7,330 bases of DNA from a virus (lineage: Monodnaviria; Loebvirae; Hofneiviricota; Faserviricetes; Tubulavirales; Inoviridae). A program made the position numbers and the translations under genes. Position 1 is the first letter of the stretch. The number at the start of each line of letters is the position of its first letter. Shown here in pieces: positions 6,403-7,246 of the stretch. Where the stretch lies: positions 1 through 7,330 of IMG/VR virus record IMGVR_UViG_2585427734_000003; one strand, 5' to 3'. The notes under the pieces are model-generated. The model saw only the letters and a program-made list of their open reading frames with translations, was not told where the DNA came from and did no database searches.

Positions 6403-6522
6403 GTATACAAGAATATTTGGATACTTTATACAACAAGTGCAAACATGCATACAAGAGCACATCGCTATTTTTATGCAATGTAACTAACATGCATGAACCC
6501 AAAACACACAAAGACTAGATTT
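6403..6522. promoter_or_regulatory. Divergent promoter/operator region between gene II (minus) and the RHH-like gene (plus), with short direct repeats
   Basis: ATACAAGA at 6405-6412 and 6449-6456, with a variant ATACAACAAG at 6428-6437 (about 22 bp spacing). ACATGCAT at 6443-6450 and 6487-6494 (44 bp apart), plus TATGCAATG at 6472-6480. Both flanking genes start here, so promoters are expected, but no confident -35/-10 pair could be assigned by eye. Confidence 0.4.
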
Positions 6523-6726
6523 ATGGCTGAGAAAAAATACACGTCCCTACGAGTACCGGAAGAACGTAAAATGGAGCTAGAGAAAGCCGCTATTGAAGTC
6601 AGCTATGCTACCGGACGCATGGTGAAATGGACTGACATGGCGTTCTATCTCATGGATGAGTATCTAAAAGAAGCTGTCAGAGACATGAAGTCATCAACAA
6701 AGACACCAAGCCTAGGGAAAAAATAA
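6523..6726 (+). CDS. Small ribbon-helix-helix-like (CopG/Arc/MetJ-type) DNA-binding protein, 67 aa from the second ATG; candidate phage regulator
   Basis: The pattern KKYTSLRVPEE (beta-strand) - RKMELEKAAIEV (helix A) - SYATGR (turn) - MVKWTDMAFYLMDEYL (helix B) parallels CopG (KKRLTITLSES-VLENLEKMAREM-GLSKS-AMISVALENY, from memory). It is divergent from the replication gene, like repressor genes of integrative inoviruses. GC-richer than the phage core. No strong Shine-Dalgarno; an alternative start is at 6493. Confidence 0.5.
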   Translation: MAEKKYTSLRVPEERKMELEKAAIEVSYATGRMVKWTDMAFYLMDEYLKEAVRDMKSSTKTPSLGKK

Positions 6727-6745
6727 AGCCCCACGCAGTATCAAA

Positions 6746-6791
6746 ACCGTGGGAAACCACGGTAAAGTTCGGGTGTCACTGAACCCCGAAC
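6746..6791 (+). repeat. Two adjacent GC-rich hairpins in the gap between the RHH-like gene and the 133-aa gene
   Basis: Hairpin 1: ACCGTGG-GAAA-CCACGGT (6746-6763), a 7-bp stem with a GNRA-type loop and also an 18-bp palindrome. Hairpin 2: GTTCGGG (6767-6773) pairs with CCCGAAC (6785-6791) around an 11-nt loop. Neither is followed by a T-tract. Confidence 0.4.
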
Positions 6792-6844
6792 CTCAAGATG
6801 AGCAAAAAACAACCAACACAAGAGAACAAAGTAGAGGTTACAAA

Positions 6845-7246
6845 ATGGAATTTAAACCAAAAAAAACCATCAAAAAAATAGTAAAAACCTATGAAGTACT
6901 CACAGAAGAAGAGCTACCAGAAGAAATTATCTTTGATATTGAAATAAGAGAAAACGAAGTTGGGGGACCAATATCAGAAGAAGAATTTCAAAGCATAATA
7001 ATGGACAAAGCAATCGCGTATGCTATTCACGATAGAGAAAATGATAGATATATCAAAGGGATGCGCTTAAGTGAGGACGGGAAATGTATAAGATTTGAAT
7101 GGACAAGAAATATAAGAAATGCATTTATATTTAATAATGAGAGTAAAGCTTCAATTTTATCTTTATACATAAACGGAAAACCTAGAGGATGTAATATAGT
7201 TCCTCTAATCTATCAAGTAGATCCATTTTTCAAATATCAAGAATAA
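6845..7246 (+). CDS. Hypothetical protein, 133 aa, Lys-rich N-terminus then an acidic stretch; function unknown (candidate accessory or cargo gene)
   Basis: ATG at 6845 preceded by a good Shine-Dalgarno AGAGG (6833-6837) at 7-nt spacing. The ORF track start at 6749 is a GTG inside the hairpin region and is less likely. AT-rich like the phage core. Followed 15-30 nt downstream by a strong terminator. I recognise no motif. Confidence 0.6.
   Translation: MEFKPKKTIKKIVKTYEVLTEEELPEEIIFDIEIRENEVGGPISEEEFQSIIMDKAIAYAIHDRENDRYIKGMRLSEDGKCIRFEWTRNIRNAFIFNNESKASILSLYINGKPRGCNIVPLIYQVDPFFKYQE

Follow-up and report, generated by a model that had tools for sequence, protein, structure and literature searches.

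A putative repressor gene, a candidate origin element and a cargo gene between gene II and attP of a filamentous prophage of Escherichia coli

Do two neighbouring genes that run against all the others in a filamentous phage genome work together, or do they belong to different parts of it? The question is raised by an inovirus sequence of 7,330 nucleotides (nt) (IMG/VR record IMGVR_UViG_2585427734_000003), which is called here, at its full length, the window. Between gene II (5278-6402, minus strand), which encodes the replication protein (Rep) pII, and the att hairpin, two open reading frames (ORFs) are found on the plus strand, opposite to all of the core phage genes: a regulator gene (6523-6726) and a gene for a protein of 133 amino acids (aa), designated p133 (6845-7246). 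An earlier note, made from the letters of the sequence, had correctly pointed out both ORFs and their position, and had treated them as a single two-gene module, perhaps a toxin-antitoxin-like pair; it had missed a conserved 50-nt hairpin element (6743-6792) that lies between them. On balance, the analysis reported here tips towards three separable features, namely a repressor gene, the core of a replication origin and the cargo gene p133, at the right-hand end of a CTXphi-like inovirus that integrates at dif.

The regulator and its control region

The regulator is a 67-aa member of the RstR family of repressors (phrog_2503) encoded on the plus strand. Its reading frame is open from 6493, the start adopted in the earlier note, which would yield a product of 77 aa. 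The ATG at 6523 is favoured instead, because the alignment with phrog_2503 opens at residue 13 of the 77-aa ORF, because the PGAP annotation uses 6523, and because the upstream ATG is out of frame in the relative L010. In a search of PHROGs the protein matched phrog_2503, itself a family of unknown function, with E=1.2e-27. Searches with tblastn detected the 'environmental RstR' of CTXphi (42% identity over 55 aa, E 1e-9 to 2e-15), the 'RstR-like regulator' of the Vibrio phages VAI1/2 (40% identity for VAI1), proteins of other Vibrio and metagenomic inoviruses, and an unannotated ORF of 63-67 aa in the 'major intergenic region' of phage If1. The regulator of the window belongs to another family than the classical and El Tor alleles of RstR, which are helix-turn-helix proteins. 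The gene is divergent from gene II on the opposite strand, at a distance of 120 nt, and the same layout, with the regulator immediately upstream of the Rep gene, is found in the environmental CTXphi (CTXphi-env), VAI1, phiAFP1 and If1. Judged by its RstR homology and by its location, the product is a predicted repressor-type protein in the rstR position, in line with the proposal of the earlier note.

The fold of the regulator is probably ribbon-helix-helix (RHH). Residues 3-50 were aligned by hhalign with the whole RHH (strand-helix-helix) domain of ParG (72.5% probability, E=3e-5); a shallower regulator profile gave 46% probability, and a profile built from diverse members ranked ParG at the top of the PDB, but with E=0.1. 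Of the ParG sequence used with hhalign, the C-terminal part was confirmed by the PDB alignment. The Pfam RHH models gave no match to the regulator (E<=10), which counts against the assignment. Comparisons with Arc, CopG and omega were insignificant, and a literature search found no published link of RstR to the RHH fold. On these results, the fold is regarded as probable rather than proven. Beyond helix 2, the regulator has a short and variable tail.

The divergent control region (6403-6522), which extends from the start of gene II (6402, minus strand) to that of the regulator (6523, plus strand), carries repeated CATG(C/T)AT(A/G)CAAG / ATGCAT motifs, and these are candidate operators. The region is conserved in phages with the same type of regulator and differs in L011, the regulator of which is 69% identical. 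Binding of the repressor to the motifs in these 120 nt would hold down the operon for replication and morphogenesis, and would confer immunity, the most likely role of the regulator given its homologues and its position.

The intergenic region of If1 (NC_001954, 4834-6039; L001) is not empty. The unannotated RstR-family ORF is located at L001 1289/1301-1492 and is followed by the 50-nt element described below. The region (L001 468-1551) also holds an insertion of the IS200/IS605 type with a 147-aa Y1_Tnp transposase (E=1e-27), beside which 'ORF348' of If1 is an OrfB_IS605-type gene.

A conserved hairpin element between the regulator and p133

The 50-nt element at 6743-6792, located between the regulator and p133 and containing a pair of hairpins, is probably the core of a pII-dependent plus-strand origin. 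It is 96% identical to a segment of the If1 intergenic region, and no other DNA of the window matches If1. A copy with 92.5% identity is present in the Alteromonas phage phiAFP1, the Rep of which is only 51% identical to pII of the window. Across these phages (If1, many enterobacterial inoviruses and phiAFP1) the element is 92-98% identical, whereas their Reps share only 51-80%. The core was detected in 28 contigs by an exact-pattern scan of IMG/VR with hairpin B (see below), and is present in 44 of the 53 loci collected.

An alignment of 30 distinct copies divided the element into three parts, hairpins A, B and C. Hairpin A (6746-6763) starts directly after the stop codon of the upstream gene and has a 7-bp stem (ACCGTGG/CCACGGT) with a GAAA loop, which reads TTTC on the viral strand. 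Among the 30 copies the loop is conserved and the stem is variable (CCGTGG/CCACGG, GTGCGG/CCGCAC, CCCCGG/CCGGGG, GTATGG/CCATAC, TACGG/CCGTA). In 14 distinct copies, five of the seven pairs were changed on both sides; the covariation score was reached by none of 500 shuffles, and 93% of the cells were paired, versus at most 45% with slid partners. Copies from phiAFP1 and from L023/L027 show opposite asymmetries in their G-T wobbles, the former favouring folding of the plus strand and the latter of the minus strand. Hairpin B (6767-6791, minus strand) reads GTTCGGG-TGTCAC(T/A)GAAC-CCCGAAC; on the viral strand it forms a 7-bp stem and an 11-nt loop, GTTC(A/T)GTGACA, and it is the candidate for the pII nick hairpin. 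Hairpin C (CCGC-TTC-GCGG) occurs just 3' of hairpin B in most of the relatives (L003, L005, L008-L015, L021-L048) and is missing from the window (6792-6802) and from phiAFP1. Its viral-strand sequence reads GCGAAGC, a very stable DNA mini-hairpin known from the origins of single-stranded DNA (ssDNA) phages.

The reading as a plus-strand origin is based on three properties of the element: it tracks the family of the Rep, it folds like the origin of M13, and it is positioned like Ig-1 of CTXphi. In nearly all of the loci it lies 340-700 nt from a divergent pII-type gene in a fixed orientation, and it also adjoins a divergent Phage_CRI subtype of Rep (E=2e-43). When only lineages found independently of the element are counted, it is present in 7 of 7 with a G2P/CRI Rep and in 0 of 4 with a Rep_trans Rep. 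The Rep_trans phages that lack it (L006/L007, CTXphi-env, VAI1 and Vibrio 10N.286) encode, without exception, a regulator of the same family. Folding of the viral strand of the element gives a stem of 7-8 bp with a loop of 11 nt and, after it, a 7-bp stem closed by a 4-nt loop (z = -3.6). For M13, folding of the origin from the record sequence similarly yields an 8-bp stem with an 11-nt loop (GTTCTTTAATA) and then a second hairpin; the first reads GAGTCCAC-GTTCTTTAATA-GTGGACTC, a layout identical to that of hairpin B, and both the M13 origin and the window element are found upstream of gene II in the same orientation. The nick site of pII lies in the loop of the M13 origin hairpin. In CTXphi, the site nicked by the Rep RstA is Ig-1, next to rstR, and the phage DNA is released from the chromosome only when Ig-1 is present in two tandem elements (PMC8265649). 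The element of the window occupies the same position and is likewise arranged in tandem. In this reading, the nick site would lie in the 11-nt loop of hairpin B (6774-6784); hairpin A would serve as an accessory hairpin or for binding, and may also terminate viral-sense transcription; and nicking of two successive tandem copies would release the phage ssDNA from the chromosome, as with Ig-1.

Some of the evidence pulls away from this reading. The invariance of hairpin B in all 44 element-carrying loci is partly forced, since the IMG/VR loci were collected by its exact pattern. The variants of hairpin A partly track the type of regulator rather than the divergence of the Rep, so that a terminator fits hairpin A better than a Rep-binding site. 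The element could instead act at the RNA level between the regulator and the cargo gene, as a terminator or as a processing or stabilising structure. Together with a minus-strand origin or a single-strand initiation (ssi) signal read by host enzymes, this forms an alternative that we hold to be possible, if rather unlikely. Conserved host machinery could explain why the element is near-identical in hosts as distant as E. coli and Alteromonas. Hairpin A is conserved in structure only and has a loop of the GNRA type on the mRNA-sense strand, followed in most of about 30 loci by a T-run on the viral-sense strand, and many relatives add the third mini-hairpin, of the very stable kind found at ssDNA phage origins. 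The strict tie to G2P/CRI Reps is harder to reconcile with host enzymes, as the element is absent from Rep_trans phages, some of which probably share enterobacterial hosts. Its fixed orientation and distance with respect to gene II, and its resemblance to the M13 nick hairpin plus the neighbouring hairpin, likewise speak for the plus-strand origin. An Rfam scan of the whole window gave no credible match, and none for the element, and the lack of a U-run on the plus strand excludes an intrinsic terminator for the regulator mRNA. The plus-strand origin and these other roles are not mutually exclusive.

Hairpin A may also double as an intrinsic terminator of viral-sense transcription that runs antisense into the repressor gene.

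Base composition and exchange of modules

The earlier note had described the regulator and its left flank as richer in G+C (GC) than p133 and the phage core. The contrast between the two genes is real: the regulator has 43.6% GC, with a GC content at third codon positions (GC3) of 0.46, as against 29.9% and 0.21 for p133, and the values for all of the core genes are 30-38% and 0.18-0.30. The 120 nt between gene II and the regulator, as a part of the left flank, do not share in it, being 32.5% GC; the conserved element reaches 54%. The compositional outlier therefore consists of the regulator and the element; p133 is not part of it.

Comparison with L003, a free circular relative of 7,439 bp, revealed 98% identity over 6400-6792, followed by a sharp break at 6792/6793, sequence that could not be aligned up to 7253, and then 78% identity. 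Within the unalignable gap, L003 still encodes a p133 homologue with 39% identity. The identities of the regulator and of p133 were 97% and 39% in L003 (with gIV/gI at about 51-54%), 39% and 79% in L005 (gIV about 81%), 41% and 72% in L007 (which has a Rep_trans Rep; gIV about 72%), 96% and 77% in L010 (gIV about 80%), 69% and 41% in L011 (gII 97%; gIV/gI about 51-54%), and 93% and 39% in L014 (unrelated, Ff/IKe-like structural genes). The two sets of values are uncorrelated. The identity of p133 follows instead that of gIV, gI and gIII, its neighbours across the attP junction, which have a similar base composition. The uncorrelated identities and the sharp break bear out the suggestion of the earlier note that the two genes have separate origins.

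Position 6792 was considered as a universal breakpoint and rejected, because most relatives run on into the third mini-hairpin that is missing from the window. The universal core of the element ends with hairpin B, and the exact break is lineage-specific. From the lack of correlation between the two genes, and from the way in which p133 tracks gIV, gI and gIII, it follows that the element marks the edge of an exchangeable module. This replication/immunity module comprises the element, the regulator, gII and gV. The interval is thus not one two-gene module: it spans the boundary between the replication/immunity module and a variable cargo slot. An exchangeable module of this composition fits the finding that genes II and V are >85% identical between the otherwise unrelated phages UPPhi and YpfPhi (PMC7307601).

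In the Ff/IKe-like (UPPhi-like) loci L014/L015, the regulator is 93% and gene II 80% identical to those of the window and the element is present, and the structural genes are unrelated. These comparisons make the two loci a clear example of transfer of the replication/immunity module between inovirus backbones. Davis and Waldor reportedly described, in 2000, rolling-circle synthesis that runs across tandem CTXphi prophages of different kinds; such synthesis would place the joints at the origin and at attP.

The slot that follows the element is hypervariable. At least 12 unrelated gene families occupy its first position in the element-bearing loci, including small membrane proteins and proteins of 88, 98, 111, 113, 129, 155, 269 and 369 aa. 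Among the 28 IMG/VR contigs, the collection of which took no account of p133, the slot contains p133 in only 2-3. Variable att-adjacent ORFs have been noted in other phages: YPO2271/2272 of YpfPhi are replaced by orf1/orf1a in CUS-1, all 'of unknown function' (PMC4266046), and the att-adjacent ORFs h3-h5 of UPPhi are also 'of unknown function' (PMC7307601). A hypervariable slot filled with unrelated genes argues that p133 is dispensable, and, judged by gene content, p133 is cargo in such a slot between the predicted origin and attP.

The membrane proteins found in the slot have 57, 68 or 127-147 aa (L003 4681-4887, L004 9235-9408, L024/L034/L038/L040 and L023/L027) and are plausible candidates for exclusion proteins like PfsE. 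In L023/L027, a membrane protein of 140 aa is encoded between the regulator and the element.

The p133 family

p133 (6845-7246, plus strand) is a cytoplasmic protein of 15.7 kDa with a pI of 5.2 and belongs to a small, uncharacterised family. Although its frame is open from the GTG at 6749 (165 aa), its length is set at 133 aa by homologues that lack an upstream open frame and by a GAGG (6834-6837) that precedes the ATG at 6845 by 7 nt. Longer calls (157, 165 and 179 aa) are due to in-frame read-through of the conserved 50-mer ("GNHGKVRVSQNPEP"). Pairwise comparison with three homologues gave dN/dS ratios of 0.035-0.12, at saturated dS, and p133 is a real gene under purifying selection. The protein has a basic N-terminus, a strongly acidic stretch (residues 21-60), no hydrophobic segment, and the motifs LSExI, ISExEFQxII, AxAW, EWTxNLRDAFIF and, at the C-terminus, VPLIYQVDPF(F/Y).

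The family comprised 7 clusters in a first search, 12 representatives at 50% identity among 1.84 billion proteins, and 19 clusters at 90% identity among 5.8 billion. Relatives were present in 3 of 2.9 million IMG/VR contigs and in none of 185,579 species-representative genomes; the window protein gave no tblastn match in the phage collection, and neither it nor the distant member P0051 matched any of the 72,556 plasmids of PLSDB. The three main clusters occur in several hundred contigs of E. coli and Salmonella, and are always annotated as "hypothetical protein".

Two distant relatives (34-38% identity) were encountered outside the inoviruses, in the fragments L016 (1459-1866) and L017 (688-930), which carry a DUF2913-Rpn-resolvase segment about 80% identical to conjugative or mobilizable plasmids of Serratia. 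In L016, a 77-aa ORF that is weakly DinI-like lies upstream of the p133 relative. In L026, the slot is occupied, 69 nt past the element, by a different-looking 111-aa ORF that can be aligned with the beta-core of the p133 family up to a shared 'VPLI' strand; its match to the family by hhalign had a probability of 42% (E=3e-4). The family may extend beyond what is detected by sequence searches.

A model of p133 made by AlphaFold2 (AF2) with 8 close homologues was unusable, with a predicted local distance difference test (pLDDT) score of 48. With 21 sequences the score rose to 76 (80-90 over residues 21-120), and the topology was a-a-b-b-b-a-b. The earlier note recognised no family for this protein, and none emerged here: p133 and its relatives gave nothing significant in Pfam, PHROGs, NCBIfam or PADLOC, a Foldseek search of the PDB with the model produced no fold match (best E = 0.13), and BFVD returned only uncharacterised small phage proteins with a template modelling (TM) score of about 0.4. 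Neither a solved Acr/Ard-type fold nor a PADLOC model was matched, and profile searches and structure prediction yielded no housekeeping phage protein. The most conserved block of p133 is its C-terminal tail (7211-7243, residues 123-133), where the AF2 confidence is low. The tail, YQVDPF(F/Y), looks like a short linear docking motif, for which low model confidence is typical, and it loosely resembles the hexapeptides that bind the beta clamp.

Two other identities were considered and rejected. An EF-hand was suggested by weak parvalbumin matches (E=0.013) in a search of PDB sequence profiles, and one family member matched EF-hand_6 with E=0.17; the canonical loop is absent, the EF-hand-like loop of p133 reading ENEVGGPISEEE, with no Asp at positions 1, 3 or 5, and positions 1-4 are helical in the AF2 model. 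The CTXphi antirepressor RstC is unrelated (hhalign probability 0.4%).

The position of p133 is the same in about seven inovirus lineages, UPPhi-like and Rep_trans phages among them: the gene is encoded on the regulator's strand shortly before attP, 38-77 nt downstream of the element or, in phages that lack the element, 62 nt downstream of the regulator. A consensus scan revealed no plus-strand promoter or terminator in 6300-7330, and no run of U accompanies the hairpins on this strand; co-transcription of p133 with the repressor is therefore the simplest arrangement. If so, p133 would be made in the lysogen, and an accessory role during lysogeny, in exclusion or host modulation, is favoured. 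By analogy at the level of the class, p133 is most likely a lysogeny-expressed accessory protein, which would bind a cellular or phage partner, for instance in exclusion or host modulation, and would not be the partner of the repressor. It weighs against this assignment that the function is a class-level guess, with no match to a fold or family and with two distant relatives outside the inoviruses.

A more specific proposal, which we consider speculative and rather improbable, is that p133 represents an undescribed family with no detectable known fold on elements that reach the cell in the form of ssDNA (inoviruses of enterobacteria and, perhaps, Serratia-type plasmids), is expressed from the repressor operon in lysogens, and docks onto a host protein through its near-invariant, unstructured YQVDPF(F/Y) tail. 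Were it true, the partner could be a component of the replisome, such as the beta clamp, or the phage receptor machinery, and docking would amount to a new kind of superinfection exclusion, modulation of host replication or anti-defence.

It also appears unlikely that p133 is an accessory factor of the phage life cycle that acts at the neighbouring origin or attP, for example by recruiting a component of the host replisome through the YQVDPF tail, by handling the ssDNA hairpin of attP or in Xer integration. Every inovirus copy of p133 is indeed situated between the origin-like element (where present) and attP, its best-conserved block is the apparently unstructured tail, and it co-varies with the morphogenesis module. 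The two distant relatives are on plasmid-like fragments, and conjugative plasmids also enter cells as ssDNA. Yet p133 is missing from most phages that share the element and the dif-type integration, and unrelated genes take its place, so that it cannot be required. Moreover, the Pro at position 4 of the tail motif is atypical of clamp binders, no DUF3653/XafT-like or other match was found for p133, and none of its relatives appeared among the PLSDB plasmids.

Very improbable, finally, is a co-adapted pair, either a type II toxin-antitoxin-like system or a repressor with a dedicated effector, in which the RHH protein would neutralise or specifically control p133: the order of a small RHH-like protein and a protein of about 130 aa on the same strand is that of many toxin-antitoxin operons, and the two genes are adjacent in about seven inovirus lineages, but they assort independently (as seen above in L003, L005, L007 and L014) and each occurs alone, the regulator family in If1, CTXphi-env, VAI1, phiAFP1 and about 25 of the 28 IMG/VR loci and the p133 relatives in the L016/L017 fragments, while the genes neither overlap nor closely abut, the 118-nt spacer holds a conserved DNA element, the toxin, antitoxin and defence hidden Markov models of Pfam, NCBIfam and PADLOC gave no match, p133 has no fold match in the PDB, and the regulator tail after helix 2 is short and variable. 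The survey of the genomic neighbourhoods of the homologues, in which regulator and p133 were found independently, likewise departs from the pairing envisaged in the earlier note. The immunity gene being separable from the cargo, a pairwise study of the regulator and p133 is not warranted.

Prophage context

The window is identical (100%) to positions 1,779,946-1,787,275 of the chromosome of E. coli 300709, where it forms exactly one unit of a head-to-tail prophage array of at least two tandem copies; the following unit begins at the very next base after the window and encodes the same proteins. The window is therefore one repeat of a tandem prophage of a CTXphi-like inovirus integrated at dif. 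The array, located next to genes of the hipA side, adjoins at its left end a dif-hybrid site with 1 mismatch to the E. coli dif consensus (L002 5985-6012), and a related prophage is located between the same flank and hipA.

According to Pfam and PHROGs, the minus strand of the window carries a complete set of inovirus genes. These encode pII (G2P_X_C and Phage_CRI, phrog_702), pV (Phage_DNA_bind), a small structural protein and pVIII, a pIII-like protein of 501 aa, a DUF2523-type pVI, pI/Zot and the secretin pIV.

The attP is of the CTXphi type, with inverted repeats, and occupies 7249-7330, continuing into positions 1-12. It contains a first dif-like site (7249-7275) and a second, inverted one (7310-7330 plus 1-12), which flank a GC hairpin (7274-7312) with a perfect stem of 14 bp. 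A folded-ssDNA attP of this design, as in CTXphi, has also been proposed for YpfPhi (PMC4266046). Given the folded attP at the 3' end of the window and the tandem units, position 7330 joins position 1 in the phage genome, and the interval with the three features is situated between gene II and attP. The boundary of the unit coincides with the edge of the dif central region, on the XerC-arm side.

Positions 1-425, downstream of gene IV, are GC-rich (49%) and conserved in the relatives, with 78% nucleotide identity to L003. A 15-nt inverted repeat at 381-422, just beyond the stop codon of gIV, is a possible terminator or packaging signal. The 82-aa ORF at 4-252 annotated by PGAP (WP_042634791.1) has no family match, and its status as a gene is doubted.

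Comparison with known systems

Filamentous prophages integrated at dif are widespread in pathogenic E. coli, Salmonella, Yersinia and Vibrio, and the cholera toxin is the att-adjacent cargo of CTXphi. Against this background, a short candidate origin common to a large clade of pII phages, and left unannotated in the classical phage If1, marks the joint at which replication/immunity modules are exchanged against cargo and structural modules. The p133 family, under strong purifying selection and present in several hundred isolates, is a tractable candidate for lysogenic conversion or exclusion. The current understanding of inovirus biology is left standing by these findings.

At the level of the protein fold, the regulator would share with RHH proteins of the ParG/Arc/CopG kind a predicted strand-helix-helix core of about 45 residues (aligned to ParG residues 33-74), and differs by six extra residues between helix A and helix B. 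The predicted origin core resembles that of the Ff phages (M13/f1/fd) in its viral-strand stem, its 11-nt loop beginning with GTTC, the second short hairpin that follows, and its location upstream of gene II in the same orientation. In contrast, the sequence itself agrees with the Ff origin only in GTTCT and in the last A of the loop, and the regulator gene of the window takes the place of domain B of the Ff origin. In phage lambda, the repressor operon cI-rexAB carries accessory genes that are expressed in lysogeny. The window is similar in that the repressor is followed directly, on its own strand, by a cargo gene for which no separate promoter was detected, and in that such cargo varies between relatives; p133 has no homology to RexA or RexB, however.

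Closer parallels are provided by the dif-integrating phages themselves. YpfPhi/CUS-1 and UPPhi also infect Enterobacterales and integrate in tandem at dif. YpfPhi has an RstR homologue, YPO2273, in the matching position (PMC4266046), and the att-adjacent ORFs differ between close relatives in these phages as well (PMC4266046, PMC7307601). L014/L015, which are UPPhi-like by appearance, carry a relative of p133 with 39% identity. The reports on these phages (PMC4266046, PMC7307601) describe no conserved origin element, no p133 family and no function. The location of the two plus-strand genes, taken in the earlier note to be the usual place for regulatory and cargo genes of inoviruses, is thus an ordinary one, known from YpfPhi, CUS-1 and UPPhi.

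The RS2 segment of CTXphi (attP - Ig-1 - rstR, divergent from rstA) shares with the window integration at dif, a folded attP with two sites, tandem prophages, a repressor divergent from the Rep gene, and an origin-bearing intergenic segment at the 3' end of the repressor (PMC8265649). The two differ in the Rep, which is of the pII/G2P type in the window and is the Rep_trans-type RstA in CTXphi, in the origin-like element, which is unrelated to Ig-1, and in the interval before attP, where CTXphi has no gene between Ig-1 and attP and the window phage has p133. The architecture of the locus therefore follows the layout already known from CTXphi, YpfPhi and UPPhi, to which the present analysis adds a candidate origin element that marks the joint between modules and the delineation of the orphan p133 family.

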